The position numbers and the translations under genes were made by a program. Below the pieces are notes generated by a model that ran no database searches, had not been told where the DNA came from, and saw only the letters and a list, made by a program, of their open reading frames with translations. Below, piece after piece: positions 202 through 48,131 of a stretch of DNA of 64,000 nucleotides. Every line of letters starts with the position of its first letter. Positions within the stretch are counted from its first letter, which is position 1. The DNA is taken from the NCBI GenBank assembly GCA_964469645.1, contig CAYXZV010000004.1:308-64307 (forward strand), written 5' to 3'. This DNA is from an uncultured Methanosarcinales archaeon (GTDB lineage Archaea > Nanobdellota > Nanobdellia > Woesearchaeales > GW2011-AR4).

Positions 202-648
202 CTAGAACTTAGATTGTCTGAACAGATCCTTGAAGTTTATATTGAGCTTTTTTCCGGTTTTTACGTCTTTTGCAAAAACTTTTTTTCCAATGTTTACTAC
301 TTTAATCTTATCCCCTTTGTATTCAATTATATCTCCTTTTTTGAAGCTTGGCATGCGGAAGAGTAAATTTACGCGGTAGAGTTCTTTGCCGGTCTGCCTG
401 TGCCTTGTGTGCAGCTTTTTGCTTATAGTTATCTGGCCTCCAAAACGGCTTTGGAGCTTATTCGCAAGACTGCGCAGGGTTCTTTGCCTGGATATGTACA
501 AGTCAGAGCCGTTAGTAACTTTTTTTATCTTAGAGATAAAAGTATCTTCAGTTTTCTCTATCTCTTTTACGGCAAATTCCATTACTTCTTCTTTGACATT
601 CCTCAATTGCAGGATTCCTTCAAAGTAATTGTCGTGTTTTGGTTCCAT
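202..648 (-). CDS. NMD3-family protein, short form without N-terminal zinc-finger domain
   Basis: 148 aa. Contains FEGILQLR, GSDLYIS and GKELYRVNLLFR, which resemble the archaeal NMD3/COG1499 core. Confidence 0.5.
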   Translation of the reverse strand: MEPKHDNYFEGILQLRNVKEEVMEFAVKEIEKTEDTFISKIKKVTNGSDLYISRQRTLRSLANKLQSRFGGQITISKKLHTRHRQTGKELYRVNLLFRMPSFKKGDIIEYKGDKIKVVNIGKKVFAKDVKTGKKLNINFKDLFRQSKF

Positions 649-667
649 ATTTTACTCACCATTAAAT

Positions 668-775
668 CAGCGTCTGGGGACGTCTGCGACGTCCCTAAAC
701 GGACAACTTCTAAATGTTCAGTTTCGGGTCGTGCGGTACTTCGTACCGCACACTGTTGCACGGGTACGTGCAATA
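668..775. repeat. GC-rich modular hairpin repeat, mosaic copy (family A/B/C)
   Basis: Hairpins GGGACGTC-tgc-GACGTCCC (677-695), GTGCGGTAC-ttc-GTACCGCAC (731-751) and TTGCACG-ggta-CGTGCAA (756-773). Flanks CAGCGTCTGG and CAGTTTCGGG are shared with 16654-16779. Confidence 0.75.
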
Positions 776-813
776 ACGAAAGCTTTTTATGCTGTCCTGG
801 TGTTTTTGAGCCT

Positions 814-1485
814 ATGAATAAAAAGAAGTTTAAAAAACTAATCAAAAAAACATGGCATTTCATATGGGAAGATGATAGTATCTGGAGCTGGATCGCTAAT
901 ATAATTATCGCATTTATTCTTATAAAATTTATAGTATATCCTGGATTAGGGTTTGTTTTGAGTACGAGTCATCCTGTTGTTGCTGTTGTTTCGAGCAGTA
1001 TGGAGCATAAGACAGTATCATCCTGCATAGATGGTGATTGTAAGTATACTATGTGTGGGAATGTATATGAGGAAAGAAAGTTTTTTGAGTTAGATGAATA
1101 TTGGGAAGAGTGCGGCAGCTGGTATATTGACAATACAGATATTGATGAAAACGAATTTTCCGGATTTTCTTTTAAAAACGGTTTTGACAAAGGGGATATA
1201 ATGTTTTTGAAAGGGGCAAATGTAGAGAACATTGAAGCTGGAGATACGATAGTCTTCAGGAGCGACAGGAAAGATCCTATAATACACAGGGTTGTGAAAA
1301 AATCTGAAGATGATGGAATATATTTCCAGACAAAAGGAGATAATAATGAAGGCTCCATAAAAAGCAAGGCTTTAGACGAAACCAAGATAGGAGAAGATAT
1401 TATTATTGGGAAAGCTGTTTTTAGGGTGCCCTTTCTGGGCTACATAAAGATATGGTTTGTTGAATTCATAGAAATCATATTTTGA
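814..1485 (+). CDS. Signal peptidase I, archaeal/ER Sec11 type (S26B)
   Basis: Start taken at the internal ATG 814 (MNKKKFKKLIKK), followed by a TM helix. Motifs SSSMEHK (Ser), GDIMFL, IIHRVV (His) and TKGDNN are present. The upstream part of ORF 400..1485 only reads through the repeat. Confidence 0.8.
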   Translation: MNKKKFKKLIKKTWHFIWEDDSIWSWIANIIIAFILIKFIVYPGLGFVLSTSHPVVAVVSSSMEHKTVSSCIDGDCKYTMCGNVYEERKFFELDEYWEECGSWYIDNTDIDENEFSGFSFKNGFDKGDIMFLKGANVENIEAGDTIVFRSDRKDPIIHRVVKKSEDDGIYFQTKGDNNEGSIKSKALDETKIGEDIIIGKAVFRVPFLGYIKIWFVEFIEIIF

Positions 1486-3122: not shown

Positions 3123-5093
3123 ATGTCATTAAGGGTTATCTTTAATCTTATAGCAGTTTCTGGTGTTTTTAGTAAAAGTGATGCTGATTTAGATATATTG
3201 CCGCCTCCGCCTCCTTTTCCGGAGATAGGGGAAGAAGTAAAAAAAGCTAAAGTGAAGGAAAAAGAAAGAAAGAGGAAAAACAATAAGAAACAAAAGGAAG
3301 AGGTAAACAAGAAGAAAGAGATAGAAAAGAAGAAAAGGCAAGAAGAGCGGGAAAGAGGGAAAAAGGAGAAGGAACAGCAGAAACTCAAAAGATTGGGAGT
3401 GAAAAGGAAAGAAAAAGAGAAAATTAAGAGAGTTGAAATAAATAAGCAGAAGGCAAGAGATAGGAAGAAGAAAGTATTCGAATTCTTCCATAAAGTTGGT
3501 TTGGTTAAGACTGAAAAAGAGAAGAAAGAAAGAGGAAAGCAAAAACAGGAAGAAGGGAAGAAAAGGTTAGAAGAATTAAAGAAAGACGAAGCAGCTAAAA
3601 AAGTATTTAAAAATTTAGAAAAAAAACCCAAGGAATTGGGACAGATTAAAGAACCAGAACAGAAAAAAGTAAGGAAAAAATCAGTTTTATCTGGTATTTT
3701 TGGGAAGAAAGAAGAAAGACAGTTTAAAGAAGAATTAGAAGATCTTGAGAAAATAACTCCTAAGCCTAGAAAAGAAGAGAAAATTAAGAAACAGAAAGTA
3801 GAAGATAGTAAGAGTGAAAAACTTAATTTCTTTCATAAAGTTGGTTTGGTTAAGACTGAAAAAGGAAGGAAAGAAAGAGAAGAACAAAAACAGGAAGAAG
3901 AGAAGTTAAAGAGGAAACAAGAAGAGGAAAATAAAAAACAACAGGAGCTGCTAAGGAAAGAAGAAGAAAGGAAACGTTTAGGGGAAGAGAAGAAAAATCT
4001 AGAAGAATTAAAGAAGAAGAAAATAGAAATTCCAAAGTTTAAATTCCCTGCAAAAAAAGAAGAGGAAAAACATCACGAAGTTGTAAAGGCAGAAGATGAA
4101 ATACAAAGGGCAATTTCTGGTATTAAAAAATCGAAGAAGAAGAAAACAAGGATTATAAAAACCTTATTTAAGAAGAAAGAAGAAAAAAAAGAAAGATTGA
4201 GACAACAAGGAAGAAGGGTTGGTAAGAAGAAAACATTCAATTTCTTTCATGGATTAGGTTTGGTTAAGAGTGAGAAAGAGAAAAAATATCTAGAGGTGAA
4301 GAAACAAAGAGAAATTAAGCTTGAAAATCAACAACAGAAAAAAGCAGAGGAAGTAGAGCGGAAGGAAAGAGCAGAGAAAAAAAGGCAAGAACAAATTGGA
4401 AAAAAGAAGTACAAAGAATATCTGAAGGGAAAAGAAGAAACAAGGAAGAAAGCGGAACAGGAAAGAGTAAAGCGAAAGCCAGTTGAACAAAGAAAAGCAA
4501 AAGAACTGGAAAGAGAAGATATTTTAAAAGAACTTAAAGAATTAAAAATACCTCAAGTGGAAGTTCCTAAGAAACCTCTTTTTGGGAAGGTATTCGGCAA
4601 AAAGAAAGAGAAAACAGAGTTTGAGAAAGAGCTGCAGGATTTAGAAGAAATACAACCAATAAAAAAATCAAGGGGTGGAATAATCTCAAAAGTTCCTGAT
4701 TTTCCGGAGCTGAAAGAAATTGAAGAAGAGGTACAAAATCCAGAGCAAATAAGAAAAACAGAAGATGAGATACAAAAGGCTATTGCAGGAATAAAGGTAA
4801 AAAAGCCTTTCGTTGAGAAAAGATTATTCAGCAAGGAAAAAAGAGAAGAAATAGCGACACCGCATGTAATGCCAAGAACTTATGACAAGATAGATCATGT
4901 TGAGGATATTGAGGAGAAGATGCATAAAGCAAGGCTGGCGTTGATGGACTTTAAATTTGAAGAAGCAAAAATGATTTATATAGAGATTATGCAGGCATAT
5001 AATGCTTTGGATCCGAAAGACAGGCATAAGGTTTACAAGGACATTAAGGATTTATATTACGAAAGGAGAAGTGCTGAGAGGTTTGCTAAGTAA
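3123..5093 (+). CDS. 656-aa Lys/Glu-rich repeat protein with N-terminal polyproline motif and globular C-terminal helical domain
   Basis: SD-like aggggtg precedes the ATG. Contains DILPPPPPFPE and three FFH(K/G)(V/L)GLVK(T/S)EKE modules. An exact 31-nt DNA repeat occurs at 3489-3519 and 3834-3864. EDEIQ(R/K)AI(S/A)GIK occurs twice. Confidence 0.7.
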   Translation: MSLRVIFNLIAVSGVFSKSDADLDILPPPPPFPEIGEEVKKAKVKEKERKRKNNKKQKEEVNKKKEIEKKKRQEERERGKKEKEQQKLKRLGVKRKEKEKIKRVEINKQKARDRKKKVFEFFHKVGLVKTEKEKKERGKQKQEEGKKRLEELKKDEAAKKVFKNLEKKPKELGQIKEPEQKKVRKKSVLSGIFGKKEERQFKEELEDLEKITPKPRKEEKIKKQKVEDSKSEKLNFFHKVGLVKTEKGRKEREEQKQEEEKLKRKQEEENKKQQELLRKEEERKRLGEEKKNLEELKKKKIEIPKFKFPAKKEEEKHHEVVKAEDEIQRAISGIKKSKKKKTRIIKTLFKKKEEKKERLRQQGRRVGKKKTFNFFHGLGLVKSEKEKKYLEVKKQREIKLENQQQKKAEEVERKERAEKKRQEQIGKKKYKEYLKGKEETRKKAEQERVKRKPVEQRKAKELEREDILKELKELKIPQVEVPKKPLFGKVFGKKKEKTEFEKELQDLEEIQPIKKSRGGIISKVPDFPELKEIEEEVQNPEQIRKTEDEIQKAIAGIKVKKPFVEKRLFSKEKREEIATPHVMPRTYDKIDHVEDIEEKMHKARLALMDFKFEEAKMIYIEIMQAYNALDPKDRHKVYKDIKDLYYERRSAERFAK

Positions 5094-6168: not shown

Positions 6169-6528
6169 TTAAGGCAGTTTTAATGTATTTTTTTCTGTTT
6201 CTTCCGGTACAGTTTCCTGATGCTCATTTTTTCTGGTAAATATTTTTCCGGATTTTAATATCATTGCTGCTATAACTATAGCTATTCCGATTATTATTGA
6301 GGGTATTACAAGATTATTCTCTATTATAGTTTTTTCTATAGTGGGAACGGGATGGCATGAAAAATCACTGCCGCAGTAATTATCAGAAGGGCATTGAGAG
6401 TCTGACCTGCATTCTTTAGCATTAAAGTTAGCAAACCATTCACCAAGTACAATTATGGATAGAACTATCAATACCACTATGATACTTATTGTTAGAATTT
6501 CTGACTTTTTATTGTTTAATAAGTTCAT
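6169..6528 (-). CDS. Small membrane protein with Cys-rich ectodomain (2 TM)
   Basis: 119 aa. N-terminal TM helix, then CRSDSQCPSDNYCGSDFSC, a second TM helix and a charged tail. Confidence 0.5.
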   Translation of the reverse strand: MNLLNNKKSEILTISIIVVLIVLSIIVLGEWFANFNAKECRSDSQCPSDNYCGSDFSCHPVPTIEKTIIENNLVIPSIIIGIAIVIAAMILKSGKIFTRKNEHQETVPEETEKNTLKLP

Positions 6529-7222: not shown

Positions 7223-7717
7223 TTATTTGTTTTCAACAAAATCCATTAGAGAGTCCAGACTGTGATACTTTATTTCTCCGTTTTCCGGACTTATCTTTAT
7301 GTTTAGGGTCTTGAATGTATGCGTGACAAGAGTTATGTTCCATACGTTGCCATATTCCTTAAGGTTTTGCAGGATTATTATTGTTTTGTTTGCTAATTCT
7401 TTTGGGTATTTTTCTTTCTGAAAGTCTTCTGCTTTTTTTAATATTTCCTTTAGGGGTAGTTTTACGTTTTTTACGTCTATTGGATTTACCTCCATATCTG
7501 GTTTTTTGAATATCTCTTCTTCTTCGTTCATTTCAATTTCCTGGTGGATTGTGAATGTTGTCATCTTATCTGTTGTTTTATGATAAAAGCCAAGATTCCA
7601 GGAATCATCATCTGGCGTTTTTAGGGCGTAAGAGAAGAATGTTTCCGGATTCTTTTTCTTCCAGTCTTTAAACTGCATGCTCTCTTCTAATTTTTTCAAT
7701 GCCTGTTTTAATTCCAT
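7223..7717 (-). CDS. Hypothetical protein
   Basis: 164-aa ORF with host-like K/E/N-rich composition and no recognised motif. Confidence 0.5.
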   Translation of the reverse strand: MELKQALKKLEESMQFKDWKKKNPETFFSYALKTPDDDSWNLGFYHKTTDKMTTFTIHQEIEMNEEEEIFKKPDMEVNPIDVKNVKLPLKEILKKAEDFQKEKYPKELANKTIIILQNLKEYGNVWNITLVTHTFKTLNIKISPENGEIKYHSLDSLMDFVENK

Positions 7718-16614: not shown

Positions 16615-16653
16615 AGGATTTTGATATACTTGTTAATATAAAAAGATTTAGTT

Positions 16654-16779
16654 TTGTGCGCACCCGCACACTAGTGTATTGGGGTGTCTACGACACCCCG
16701 AGACGGCTCAGAATGCCGCAGTTTCGGGATGTCTTTGACATCCCCAGACGCTGTTTTACGGGCACGTAAAATTTTACGA
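16654..16779. repeat. GC-rich modular hairpin repeat, longest copy (family A/B/C)
   Basis: Hairpins GTGCG-cacc-CGCAC (16656-69), GGGGTGTC-tac-GACACCCC (16681-99) and GGGATGTC-ttt-GACATCCC (16726-44). Also TACG-ggca-CGTA and the palindrome CGTAAAATTTTACG. Confidence 0.8.
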
Positions 16780-19565: not shown

Positions 19566-20351
19566 ATGGCAGTTGCACTTGACGATCTTACTGATGAATA
19601 TTTTGAAAAGGCAATAGCTAGAGAAGAAATTCTGTTTGACAAGCAAACAGGTTTACCGATTATTGAGTATACTTCTGTTTTGGAGCATCCTCCAATTCAA
19701 GTTACAGAAAGAGGAGATATTGCAAAGATTCTTGGAGTAATGGATGCCCCCTCACTTTATAGTAATCTTGAGAAGATTGGTTGGGTTCTTGATGAAAATA
19801 GACATACAACAACTGAACGGTTAGAACTCTATATTTATTATAGAGCTAAAGTAAATAAAATAGAACCGGAAAAACGTAAATCACAATTGAAAGAAAGTTT
19901 ACAGAGACTTCATGAGTATGAGCGTTCACACCATCCAGAACCAGGAGGTGTTGTAATTCCACTAGTTATTGGAGATGGAAAAGATGGAGAGAATACAGAT
20001 TCTGCTCGACAACATCCACCTTCAGAAAGAATAACTGTGAGTGAAGAAATACAACAAGCACCCCCTGTAAAAACTCCATCTACTAGAAGTAGATATGTTT
20101 TTGATGGGGCTTATGGTCCTGGTGAAGGGGCTCGTATTAGGGAACAGTTTCCTGGTAATGAACTTGCTTTAAGATTTGGGGCAGAGTTTGGACCTGGCAA
20201 AGAAATCGGCCATAAAGATCTGGAGGAACGTTTGCCTAGAAAGTTCGGAGTTTCTCCCGATAAAGTATATGAGCTTGCTGGGTGGTTTTTTGATAAGAGA
20301 CTTATAGTTCCTACAGAGAATGGAACATATGTTTGGAAACCTCTGCGTTAA
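19566..20351 (+). CDS. 261-aa ORFan, non-host composition and codon usage; possible C-terminal winged-helix
   Basis: ATG at 19566 is preceded by ggggat, with tttataaa at 19515-19522. The central region is disordered and P/G/H-rich. About 7 of 18 Arg codons are CGN. Confidence 0.55.
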   Translation: MAVALDDLTDEYFEKAIAREEILFDKQTGLPIIEYTSVLEHPPIQVTERGDIAKILGVMDAPSLYSNLEKIGWVLDENRHTTTERLELYIYYRAKVNKIEPEKRKSQLKESLQRLHEYERSHHPEPGGVVIPLVIGDGKDGENTDSARQHPPSERITVSEEIQQAPPVKTPSTRSRYVFDGAYGPGEGARIREQFPGNELALRFGAEFGPGKEIGHKDLEERLPRKFGVSPDKVYELAGWFFDKRLIVPTENGTYVWKPLR

Positions 20352-23155: not shown

Positions 23156-24117
23156 CATTTTTCTTCTTTCTCTTTGGATTCCTTTTTATCTTCTTGCTCT
23201 TTTTCAGGATGTAGGATCTTTTCTGCTTTCTCTTCTGCAATTTTCTCTTGTTCTTTGCTTAGCTTGATTCCAGGGCTTTCGGATTCCGGTTTTTCTTCTT
23301 TCTCTTTGGATTCCTTTTTATCTTCTTCTTTTATCTCTTGCAGTTTCTTCCTGTCTTTCTCTAATTGTTCTTCAGAAGGTTCATCAACTACATCCAAATC
23401 TCCAAGTTTTTCTTCTACAACTTCTGTTTTTGGAGATTCTTCTTTTTCCTCTTGATTTTGCTTTTCTAAATCCAATGGATTACCTTCCTCATCCAGTAAA
23501 TCTGCAGTTTTCTTTATCTCCTCATCCTTCCGTTTCTCTTCTTCAGCGCGTGCTTTCTGTTCTTCCTTGATCTGTTTGATTTCTGTCTCTTTTTCTTCAA
23601 TTGCTTTTGATATGCTTCCAAAATCCCTGAAAACCTCTTTCATTTTTTCCTGAGGAAGGTTAAAGTATTCAAAAAATTTGTCTGTAAGCTTGATCAGATT
23701 TGTACGGCCGTGCTTCTGCCGGGTTATATAGCCCATGGCTTCCAATTCTTTCAGATGATCGTAAGCTTTATTTGTCCTTATCTTAATCAGATCAGATTGC
23801 TTTATCGGATACTTAAAGGCTATAACGGCCAAAGTCTCAACTATTGTCTTGCTCAGTTCTGTCTCTGTCACTATTTTTTGCACTAAAGGCAAGAACGGCT
23901 CGCGAACAGTTAACTTCCATGAATCACCTTCATTAGCAATCATTACACTTGAGCCTTTGTCGTCATACTCTGTTTTCAGCTCGACAAGAGTGTTTTTTAT
24001 GTCGTCAGTTTTTGCGTTAGATAATCTGGAAAGTTCAATAAGGTCCATCTTTCTTCCGGAAGAAAAAAGCAATGCCTCTAGTTTACTTTTAAGAGTATTT
24101 ATCTCTTTTGTTTCCAT
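23155..24117 (-). CDS. scpB: Segregation and condensation protein B with long Lys/Glu-rich C-terminal extension
   Basis: LEALLFSSGRKMDLIELSRL and tandem winged helices are present. The tail contains an exact 38-nt direct repeat (23158-23195 and 23290-23327). Confidence 0.75.
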   Translation of the reverse strand: METKEINTLKSKLEALLFSSGRKMDLIELSRLSNAKTDDIKNTLVELKTEYDDKGSSVMIANEGDSWKLTVREPFLPLVQKIVTETELSKTIVETLAVIAFKYPIKQSDLIKIRTNKAYDHLKELEAMGYITRQKHGRTNLIKLTDKFFEYFNLPQEKMKEVFRDFGSISKAIEEKETEIKQIKEEQKARAEEEKRKDEEIKKTADLLDEEGNPLDLEKQNQEEKEESPKTEVVEEKLGDLDVVDEPSEEQLEKDRKKLQEIKEEDKKESKEKEEKPESESPGIKLSKEQEKIAEEKAEKILHPEKEQEDKKESKEKEEK

Positions 24118-46829: not shown

Positions 46830-47258
46830 ATGAACAGCAAAGAAAAAACAGCAAAAAAGGAACAAAAGAGCAAGAGCAAACAGGTAAGTGAAGGAATAAA
46901 ACTCAGAGGCAGAATTTTTGTCGGAACCGTGACTGCCAGCAAGATGCAGAAAACTGTGACAGTAGAATGGGAAAGGAAAGGCTACCTGAAAAAATATGAA
47001 AGATATGAGAAAAAGAAAAGCAGGATTAAAGCCCATAATCCAGAATCAATAAGTGCGAAGGAAGGGGATATTGTTAGGATTATGGAATGCAGGCCATTGA
47101 GCAAAACCAAAAATTTTGTGGTTGTTGAAGTTTTAGGTAAGGAAAAAGGATTCAAAGAAAGAATGGAAGCTGAGGAAGAATCCAAATTTAAGAGAGAAGA
47201 GGAAAAGGAAGAATTGAAGAGCGATAATCAAGAGGATAAAGCAGAGGTGCAGGCATAA
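46830..47258 (+). CDS. rps17: 30S ribosomal protein uS17 with Lys/Glu-rich tail
   Basis: [18 protein letters not shown]...AHNP...[16 protein letters not shown] is present. Confidence 0.95.
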
Positions 47259-47660
47259 ATGCAGGCTATAAAATCAAAGATAACAAAAGGAATTCCTGTA
47301 GGGACTCAACTGGAGACATGCGATAATTCAGGAGCTAAGCTCCTTAAGGTATTTACAGTTGTTGGAAGCAAGACTACAAAAGGGAAAAATCCTGCGGCAG
47401 GGGTTGCAGATCTTGTTGTGGCATCTGTCAGGAGAGGAAGACCTGATATGAGGAAACAAGTTGTTTTTGCAGTCATAGTCAGGCAGAAAAAAGAGTACAA
47501 AAGAGCTGACGGCACGAGAATAAAGTTTGAGGATAACAGTGCTGTTGTCCTTAAAGATGATAAAGGAAATCCAAAAGGAACTATATTCAAAGGAGCTATT
47601 GCTAAGGAAGTAACTGAGAGGTGGCCAGGTATTGCTAAGATAGCGAGTATTGTGGTATAA
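47259..47660 (+). CDS. rpl14: 50S ribosomal protein uL14
   Basis: LETCDNSGAKLLKV is present. Confidence 0.95.
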   Translation: MQAIKSKITKGIPVGTQLETCDNSGAKLLKVFTVVGSKTTKGKNPAAGVADLVVASVRRGRPDMRKQVVFAVIVRQKKEYKRADGTRIKFEDNSAVVLKDDKGNPKGTIFKGAIAKEVTERWPGIAKIASIVV

Positions 47661-47662
47661 TA

Positions 47663-47747
47663 TTGTGCATGCCTGCACACTAGCGTATGGGGATATCTGA
47701 GATATCCCGAGACTGTTTCGTGCGGTAATGTAAAATCGGGCGCGTAA
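47663..47747. repeat. GC-rich modular hairpin repeat, short copy, inside the r-protein operon
   Basis: GTGCA-tgcc-TGCAC (47665-78), ACACTAGCGTAT, GGGATATC-tga-GATATCCC (47690-708) and GAGACTGTTTCG...GTAAAA. Confidence 0.8.
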
Positions 47748-47750
47748 AAA

Positions 47751-48131
47751 ATGAAAACAAAATTTTCAAGTTCGTGGATAAGGAGCAAACAATCTAGGAA
47801 ACAAAGAAAGTACAGGCACAACGCTCCGCTGCATATAAAACAGAAATTTGTAGGCGCGCACTTATCAAAAGAGTTACGAGAAAAATACAAGAAAAGAAGC
47901 ATAAATCTGAGAAAGGGGGATAGTGTTAAAGTTACGAGAGGGCAGTTTAGGGACAAAACAGGCAAGATTGATGAAGTTGATGTAAAAAAAACTCAAGTTT
48001 ATGTTGGTGGAATCGAGATTGTAAAGAGAGATGGTACAAAAGCAAGATATCCGTTAAATCCATCAAATTTGATCGTGACTGAAGTTGACGTGAATGATAA
48101 AATGAGAAACAAAATTTTTGAGAGGAAGTAA
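47751..48131 (+). CDS. rpl24: 50S ribosomal protein uL24
   Basis: KOW motif LRKGDSVKVTRGQFRDKTGKI. Confidence 0.9.
   Translation: MKTKFSSSWIRSKQSRKQRKYRHNAPLHIKQKFVGAHLSKELREKYKKRSINLRKGDSVKVTRGQFRDKTGKIDEVDVKKTQVYVGGIEIVKRDGTKARYPLNPSNLIVTEVDVNDKMRNKIFERK

Follow-up and report, generated by a model that had tools for sequence, protein, structure and literature searches.

INTRODUCTION

Two classes of bacterial repeats and one set of archaeal mRNA processing sites are the closest described counterparts of the element that is the subject of this report. The element fills the spacer between the ribosomal protein genes uL14 (rpl14) and uL24 (rpl24) in a 64,000-nt stretch of archaeal DNA (contig CAYXZV010000004.1 of assembly GCA_964469645.1; this whole stretch is called the window below). 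We consider it, with a probability of roughly 0.6, to be a decayed, fused copy of a non-autonomous hairpin-forming mobile repeat, in the style of the repetitive extragenic palindromic sequences (REPs) and their REPIN doublets or of the transposable elements of the miniature inverted-repeat type (MITEs). Attention had been drawn to it by a preliminary description made from the DNA letters alone.

REPs, including the bacterial interspersed mosaic elements (BIMEs), the REPINs, and the GTAG- and CGTC-tagged superfamilies, are short stem-loops with a stem of 8 bp, rich in GC against surroundings rich in AT (PMC3733652, PMC3116915), and the family to which our element belongs is like them in these respects. 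In both cases, the repeats are extragenic and multi-copy; some stand alone, but most are head-to-head dimers around a conserved spacer. The stems are heterogeneous and the flanks conserved, the distribution across related genomes is patchy, and the repeats are co-transcribed with their neighbours, in our case presumably. As a short imperfect palindrome that is extragenic and present in many copies, the family corresponds to the REPs, and the reverse strand of its alpha subfamily reads CGTC-TG-stem, which is reminiscent of the CGTC tag. There are also differences. The host is a DPANN archaeon and each unit has two hairpins; GTAG is missing, and CGTC is found only on the alpha reverse strand (CAGACG), the beta subfamily having CATACG. 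Whereas the CGTC REP families have AT first pairs and a loop of 4 to 5 nt (PMC3733652), the stem of this family starts with GGG and its loop is 3 nt. Bacterial REPs occupy unidirectional and convergent spacers, close to the 3' end of the gene upstream (PMC3733652), whereas our units are located at the 5' end of the downstream open reading frame (ORF), often in divergent spacers, and the analogy with REPs that had been drawn in the preliminary description therefore fails with regard to position. No REP-associated tyrosine transposase (RAYT) was seen in the partial contigs that we reached.

The bacterial MITEs (Correia/NEMIS, ERIC, BOX, and RUP; PMC10969869, PMC3184786) resemble the paired form of the family, which is about 90 to 140 nt long with imperfect terminal inverted repeats, is inserted in intergenic spacers, also within operons, has modular and truncated variants, and is predicted to fold in the mRNA. 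Terminal inverted repeats are present in head-to-head pairs such as 16650-16775 of the window, L049 10403-10524, and L005 3139-3249 (retrieved loci are cited by L numbers). Unlike MITEs, the family shows no demonstrable target-site duplication and its termini are themselves hairpins; moreover, solo units are common and polar, with a tail that abuts start codons and replaces the Shine-Dalgarno motif. A functional analogue, relevant if the family acts in mRNA processing, has been described for Methanolobus psychrophilus, where endonucleolytic sites are found in intergenic regions and 5' untranslated regions of ribosomal protein operons, near translation starts, and processing raises stability and translation (PMC5499594). 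Those sites have a uridine signature and lie upstream of ribosome-binding sites, whereas the present family is a two-hairpin module that replaces such sites and for which cleavage is only proposed.

RESULTS

The uL14-uL24 spacer is a fused copy of a repeat unit.

The whole spacer (47661-47750), from directly after the uL14 TAA (47658-47660) up to the uL24 ATG (47751), is a fused element of what we call the short form. Its sequence is TAT-TGTGCA TGCC TGCACA-CTAGCGTATG-GGGATATC TGA GATATCCC-GAGACTGTTTCGTGCGGTAATGTAAAATCGGGCGCGTAAAAA. A covariance model (R1), built from seven copies of the family with the spacer copy excluded, matches it at 47659-47714 on the minus strand with 55.4 bits (E about 8e-22), and a weak match of 26 bits on the plus strand (47684-47753) uses the same central hairpin. 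The gap of 90 nt is the sole long junction of the operon: the remaining junctions from uL3 to uL15 range from an overlap of about 35 nt to a gap of 40 nt (eL19-uL18). Both the anomalous length of the junction and its filling by a family copy had been put forward in the preliminary description, and both hold. The motifs listed there are also all present, on the plus strand in the order TGTGCA-TGCC-TGCACA hairpin, linker CTAGCGTATG, hairpin GGGATATC-TGA-GATATCCC, GAGACTGTTTCG...CGGGCGCGTAAAAA, ATG. However, the best match is on the minus strand, and what had been called 'HP1' is the second hairpin of a reversed unit.

This reversed unit (47663-47714, minus strand) is intact. It belongs to the beta subfamily with a second hairpin of type B and was aligned with 44 other units. 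On its own strand it reads AGTCTC-GGGATATC TCA GATATCCC-CATACGCTAG-TGTGCA GGCA TGCACA-A. With respect to the operon the unit lies in antisense, and its tail is directed into the stop codon of uL14. The first hairpin (HP-I; 47690-47708), with 8 bp and a 3-nt loop, is common to the minus-strand unit and a decayed plus-strand unit, and its pairing is kept family-wide by compensatory changes. The second hairpin of the minus-strand unit (HP-II; 47664-47679) has 6 bp and a 4-nt loop. Part of the conserved linker CATACGCTAG (47680-47689, minus strand) can pair with the AGTCTC flank, extending HP-I. The decayed plus-strand half-unit (47709-47750) consists of GAGACTGTTT, an odd stretch of 18 nt (CGTGCGGTAATGTAAAAT), and CGGGCGCGTAAAAA. 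Compared with the intact short form of L014 (761-839) and the long form of L049, it is without hairpins of its own: what remains is the loop, the HP-II 3' arm, and an A tail directly adjoining the ATG, and the 5' arm (TTTTACG) has been lost. As the odd 18 nt replaces this arm when the half is compared with L014, HP-II cannot form there. The intact minus-strand unit is a GC-rich structured island within a genome of 35% GC.

The family and its covariation.

The family unit is about 52 nt long and consists of AGTYTC, the 8-bp HP-I, CAKACGCTR, a 7-bp HP-II with a GGCR loop, and an A-rich tail, the hairpins measuring 19 nt and 18 nt. Units are found solo, as head-to-head pairs, or fused around one common hairpin. 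In the long form, a reversed unit (beta, type B) is followed, after a conserved spacer, by a forward one (alpha, type A), and the short form consists of two units fused around one hairpin, as in L014 761-839 and L005. HP-II occurs as type A (TTTTACG-GGCR-CGTAAAA), as type B (GTGTGCA-GGCA-TGCACAA), and as intermediates, the variants differing by three compensatory pairs. A total of 45 units, all of them intergenic, was assembled from the window and from genome and metagenome searches with degenerate patterns. These searches gave copies in two GTDB metagenome-assembled genomes (MAGs) and, in metagenomes of marine and groundwater origin, at 30 loci on about 20 distinct contigs. One of the MAGs is B44T1L10, with 4 units in 16 kb; the other carries the label Methanosarcinales and has sequence in common with Woesearchaeota-like contigs. 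The 64-kb window has 3 sites (6 units). Searches for exact or near-exact repeats with the whole element returned only the element itself, because the stems differ between copies, and the family surfaced through its linker motifs. Rfam 15 gave nothing in the window at gathering score except one tRNA, and with E values up to 10 only weak generic hairpin matches far below the cut-offs. The viral contigs that were searched contained no family copy. The family is an undescribed group of small hairpin-forming repeats in a clade of marine and groundwater Woesearchaeota (DPANN).

The hairpins are strongly maintained. Among 44 distinct units, pairing is kept in 95.9% of the stem cells, and compensatory changes occur in 8 of the 15 stem pairs, with 97 double-change cells where 31 are expected, a number that was reached by none of 500 shuffles. 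The HP-I loop is GNA in 31 of 40 intact triloops, and the HP-II loop begins with GG in 43 of 44 units. When the units are read in the forward orientation, there are 11 G.U pairs versus 4 A.C pairs. A possible extension of four pairs below HP-I adds 17 U.G pairs in the alpha subfamily; in the beta subfamily it is mismatched (C.U). The sequence GTAAAATA is present 3 to 4 nt upstream of many solo units.

Several further observations concern individual copies. Three loci have nested inserts within the HP-I loop (L011 65-159, L022 800-853, and L002 3762-3823), one being an extra hairpin of 40 nt and the others an HP-II-like GTGCGGGTACGCAC, which suggests that family hairpins insert into one another. 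The units at L028 1222-1277 and at 16650-16705 of the window are orthologous, with the same flank upstream of the CCA-adding enzyme gene, and their HP-I stems are two compensatory pairs apart (GGGGTATT/AATACCCC versus GGGGTGTC/GACACCCC). The MAG 'uncultured Methanosarcinales archaeon binchicken_co48_555' (L001, L005, L006; CAZTBE01), with 30 to 35% GC, is identical in sequence around its repeat units to metagenome contigs (L010, L008/L027/L032, L025; Ga0187833 and others), and the Ga0187833 metagenome also yields a Woesearchaeota-like ribosomal protein contig (Ga0187833_10000032). Going by these sequences, the label Methanosarcinales of this MAG is probably wrong.

Occupied and empty sites in relatives.

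The element is present between uL14 and uL24 in three lineages, namely, the window (90 nt), L043 (140 nt), and L049-51 (122 nt, a full pair). Six others have an empty junction with a spacer of 11 to 29 nt (L044/45, L046-48, L055, L056, L057, and L058), in agreement with the earlier view of the element as an insert, and none of these relatives has a 90-nt spacer filled with unrelated sequence. The occupied junctions have the same outer boundaries, TAA followed by TTGTGCATGCC on one side and CGTAAAAA followed by ATG on the other. A Shine-Dalgarno-like GAGG or GGTGAT is obvious in five of the six empty spacers, L058 having only a partial GTGAT, whereas none of the three occupied junctions has a Shine-Dalgarno motif; where the element occupies uL14-uL24, the Shine-Dalgarno spacer is absent. 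The empty spacers read AGATTTTGAGGTTTTTGATGAAAAA in L044/45, AATTTAAGGTGATTAT followed by a GTG start in L046-48, ACGTTTGAGGAAAAA in L055, and ATGAGGATCAT in L057; that of L056 (27 nt) ends in GAGGAAAAA and that of L058 (29 nt) in GTGATGAAAAA. A neighbour-joining tree of uL14, uL24, and eS4 is star-like, with the window and L043 as sisters and L049 outside, which fits a single old insertion as well as repeated insertion.

A clean empty site was found elsewhere. The spacer between the genes for a Na+/H+ exchanger and the CCA-adding enzyme is 94 nt in L053. With flanks identical to those of L053, the window has in addition a pair of 118 nt, which lies precisely between CGTAAAA and AACTAAATC and between two back-to-back promoters with a TFB recognition element (BRE) and a TATA box. 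In L052 (B44T1L10), a degenerate pair is present at the same junctions. At the eS19 site, a relative in run X3 is without the unit and has ...CAATTGAGGAATAA-AAAATG (with GAGG) instead, and the occupied genome retains a decayed version of this empty-site spacer upstream of its unit. Although labelled 'metatranscriptomic', runs X3 and X4 consist of contigs from a library made by whole-genome amplification, and what they yielded was an empty-site variant and not RNA ends. None of the public RNA runs that were searched contained the window or L026. Presence/absence polymorphism with precise boundaries, as is typical of MITEs, is thus seen at the exchanger/CCA-enzyme site, and the eS19 site, too, is empty in a relative. 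The flanks are A-rich (GTAAAA-like) on both sides. In GCA_030740675.1 (L046-48, L053), no unit was found within the 41 kb that was reached.

Other hairpin inserts occupy comparable positions in this clade. L054 (9722-10000; GCA_016180235.1) has a different inverted-repeat element of about 190 nt, with ends AGGCTTTGTTGAAAAT ... ATTTTCAACAAAGCCT, in the position that the hairpin pair has in the window, between the promoters of the exchanger and the CCA-adding enzyme. L058, of which the uL14-uL24 junction is empty, contains unrelated hairpin clusters at 7563-7682, 6171-6310, and 19702-20176. Its uS19-uL22 spacer (120 nt) has hairpins of the types GAAAATC-AAA-GATTTTC and GGAAATGC-AAA-GCATTTCC, its uL23-uL2 spacer (140 nt) has a different hairpin insert upstream of a retained GGAGG, and more hairpins are present in a 475-nt stretch after eL34. 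Therefore, hairpin inserts in ribosomal protein operons recur in the clade, with different families.

Units point at gene starts.

The contexts of the units were sorted with a codon-usage gene caller, and the distances from tail to start fall into two classes. In 19 units (about 15 independent sites) the tail is 0 to 2 nt from an ATG on the same strand, all 19 starts being ATG. In 12 units the distance is 33 to 65 nt, and a BRE/TATA-like motif follows within a few nucleotides of the unit and ends 21 to 22 nt ahead of the ATG, a spacing characteristic of leaderless genes. None of the units sorted by context has a distance of 3 to 32 nt. Eight units, most of them outer members of pairs, point into the 3' end of a gene. 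Among the solo units, 15 of 17 are directed at a gene start and the other 2 are not (binomial p about 0.001). The sites comprise about 10 divergent, 14 unidirectional, and 1 to 2 convergent spacers. Judged by eye, the genes downstream of the units are housekeeping genes, including those for eS19, a PDCD5-like protein, eL31, eL33, eL18, eS8, uL24, RpoK, aIF2beta, Rrp41, PyrI, FtsZ, Orc1, DNA ligase, and others. Mere tolerance does not explain this placement rule: the units of the family sit right at the ATG and no Shine-Dalgarno motif is left, whereas the insert between uL23 and uL2 in L058 keeps its GGAGG. The flush placement together with the loss of the Shine-Dalgarno motif leads us to infer that the 3' end of the unit gives a workable start context.

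Two further readings of the unit were rejected. The unit is not coding, as its distance to the ATG varies from 0 to 2 nt, its stems covary, and some copies have in-frame stops. Nor does it contain a promoter for a leaderless start at the abutting ATG: positions -30 to -23 are CCCCAGAC, and real promoters end 21 to 22 nt before the ATG.

RNA-level predictions at the junction.

When the junction RNA was folded with 60 nt of coding sequence on each side, two stable local hairpins were predicted. The probability of being unpaired around the rpl24 AUG was 0.56 to 0.69, compared to 0.43 to 0.53 at empty junctions. Occlusion of the start by the hairpins, a concern raised earlier, was therefore not seen in the folding, the AUG being as open as at the empty junctions. 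The spacer contains no run of four or more T and no TATA 21 to 22 nt before the rpl24 ATG, and therefore transcription of the element as part of the polycistron, as the preliminary description had it, is a reasonable inference from sequence.

Genomic setting and other repeats in the window.

The window is an archaeal genome segment of 35% GC, and the uL14-uL24 junction lies in its uL3...uL15-SecY ribosomal protein cluster. According to ORF coordinates and Pfam, the genes around the spacer are uS17 (46830-47258), uL14 (47259-47660, plus strand; PF00238, E 7e-34), uL24 (47751-48131, plus strand; PF16906), and then eS4. The ATG start of uL24 is conserved in relatives and is without a Shine-Dalgarno motif upstream. 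An identical spacer is present in four independent marine assemblies that encode the same uL14, and homologues of uL14 and the CCA-adding enzyme carry the labels Candidatus Woesearchaeota or Nanoarchaeota (DPANN).

The two sister copies in the window are both head-to-head pairs. That at 16650-16775, with units at 16650-16705 (minus strand) and 16720-16775 (plus strand), is flanked by two promoters arranged back to back, that of the CCA-adding enzyme on one side and that of the Na+/H+ exchanger on the other. The pair at 646-777 was matched by R1 as units at 646-701 (minus strand) and 720-777 (plus strand, weaker). The minus-strand unit abuts the ATG of an NMD3-like ORF (202-648, minus strand), and the plus-strand unit is followed by a BRE/TATA-like motif and then by an ORF at 814-1485. 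A longer ORF of 361 amino acids (400-1485, plus strand) is open across the repeat pair and could be mis-annotated by automatic callers; the true start is most likely the ATG at 814, after the BRE/TATA-like motif, and by eye the gene that starts there looks like a signal peptidase. The window also contains a coding region with many direct repeats that are rich in AAG/GAA (3200-4320), with a 125-nt unit present three times (3436-3560, 3781-3905, and 4195-4319), and an exact 38-nt direct repeat (TTTTTCTTCTTTCTCTTTGGATTCCTTTTTATCTTCTT) at 23158-23195 and 23290-23327, the copies being 132 nt apart.

DISCUSSION

We favour a non-autonomous mobile element as the origin of the uL14-uL24 spacer because the family is patchily distributed, a site is cleanly empty in a relative, modular and decayed variants occur, and sister lineages have no need of the element. 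The element would have arrived by insertion, probably as a head-to-head pair, and part of the plus-strand unit would have been lost later. Several points weigh against this. The old uL14-uL24 spacer is missing and not split, and therefore this junction is not a simple clean insertion. A copy-specific target-site duplication is unsupported, as the matches between the flanks of one copy are no longer than those between copies (permutation p = 0.19), and at the clean empty site the A-run makes a duplication of 0 to 2 nt unresolvable. No transposase or other mobilising enzyme is among the genes noted beside the units on these partial contigs. Copies within one genome are not near-identical, unlike what is expected for recent transposition. 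Finally, elements persist at orthologous sites across about 75 to 86% protein identity, with stems kept by compensatory change, and this fits selection for function as well as selfish persistence.

A function for the host is the basis of a less likely alternative, in which the element is a cis-acting RNA module and mobility is secondary. As a processing or initiation signal, read forward in an mRNA, the unit would be cut at the foot of HP-II, by an endonuclease or by the RNA itself, and the cistron would start at most 2 nt from the AUG; translation would then be leaderless and a Shine-Dalgarno motif unnecessary. The tail-to-ATG distances of 0 to 2 nt at about 15 independent sites, with none at 3 to 32 nt, are in the range of leaderless mRNAs, every abutted start is ATG, and the Shine-Dalgarno motif is present where the unit is absent and absent where it is present. 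Promoter-proximal genes in these genomes also look leaderless, their TATA box ending 21 to 22 nt before the ATG. The preference for G.U over A.C pairs in the forward orientation (11 to 4) and the 17 further U.G pairs in the possible lower stem point to RNA as well, and the genes downstream (by eye, those for eS19, eL31, eL33, eL18, eS8, uL24, RpoK, aIF2beta, and Rrp41) are mostly highly expressed housekeeping genes. Endonucleolytic processing that raises translation is documented in archaeal ribosomal protein operons (PMC5499594). However, the gene-facing half of the uL24 copy in the window has lost the first hairpin and the 5' arm of the second, leaving 26 bits, yet the gene must be expressed, and the unit that is well kept at this junction is antisense to the operon. 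Sister lineages are without the family entirely, and about one-third of the units lie upstream of promoters, where they are expected to be absent from the mRNA.

Those promoter-associated units could instead suggest that the family acts as DNA, as an operator or upstream activating site for a transcription factor of a growth or translation regulon, located just upstream of the BRE/TATA or over the transcription start. Twelve units have a BRE/TATA within a few nucleotides after them, many solo units have the TATA-like GTAAAATA 3 to 4 nt upstream, and the downstream genes are enriched in translation and replication functions. C-GNA-G triloops form unusually stable DNA mini-hairpins. We nevertheless find this explanation quite unlikely, as symmetric compensatory changes in both arms are unexpected for a palindrome that is read by a protein, the ATG-abutting units leave no room for a promoter (CCCCAGAC at -30 to -23), related genomes manage without the family, and the uL14-uL24 copy lies within an operon. 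It is very unlikely that the element is an internal promoter or terminator that ends the uL3-uL14 transcript, starts a new one from uL24, or both. The spacer does contain A-rich TATA-like strings (GGTATAATATT at 47655-47665 and AATGTAAAAT at 47727-47736), and long-form pairs have a conserved ATTCAAAAG-like centre, but with distances to the ATG of 14 nt and about 86 nt the strings do not match the 21 to 22 nt of bona fide promoters, type B tails are without any AT-rich box, and there is no stretch of at least four T such as usually signals termination in archaea. An independent small antisense RNA gene, in which the intact minus-strand unit would be transcribed alone and act on the 3' end of the uL14 message, would account for the best-conserved unit being on the minus strand and for the GC-rich structured island in a genome of 35% GC. 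Upstream on the minus strand, where the uL24 coding sequence begins, there is no promoter-like motif, however, and the same arrangement elsewhere is explained by head-to-head pairs of which each unit faces a gene, which makes such an RNA extremely unlikely. Bulge-helix-bulge splicing motifs, integron attC sites, CRISPR-like repeats, and origin recognition boxes (ORB) of replication origins were dropped, as the architecture that defines them is absent.

If the spacer is indeed a decayed mobile repeat, the element would be transcribed within the operon mRNA and, according to the folding, would form two stable hairpins there that do not block the rpl24 AUG. What may stand in for the normal upstream context of a gene is a unit's 3' end (HP-II plus the A tail). 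This could be the reason why the family survives in very compact genomes, and it would allow rpl24 to be translated without a Shine-Dalgarno motif. Two routes can be envisaged: cleavage at the foot of HP-II, resulting in a leaderless cistron, or display of the invariant loop GG, 9 to 11 nt before the AUG, as a minimal ribosome-binding site. As its gene-facing half is degraded, the spacer copy itself is most likely a tolerated passenger by now. A more doubtful idea treats the unit as a portable 'gene-start cassette': as a mobile RNA module with two hairpins, it would cleave itself, or be cleaved by a nuclease of the host, at the foot of HP-II and in this way make the following ORF leaderless. 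If this were true, the element could insert directly before essential genes, including those of a ribosomal protein operon, as the Shine-Dalgarno motif would become dispensable.

DPANN genomes are among the most compact known, and to our knowledge repeat elements in these archaea are essentially undescribed. As this family demonstrates, not even the core ribosomal protein operon of so compact a genome is closed to small structured repeats. The covariance model of the family can be used to flag its members in MAGs from DPANN archaea; there they widen the intergenic gaps and may mislead start-codon calling. The placement rule is unusual in that the tail is flush with start codons or promoters and the ribosome-binding site is lost, and it ties a selfish element to archaeal translation initiation, namely, to the matter of leaderless versus Shine-Dalgarno-led starts. 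If the tail supplies a start context or a processing site, the unit would be a natural, compact module with which the translation of internal cistrons that have no Shine-Dalgarno motif could be studied in archaea.
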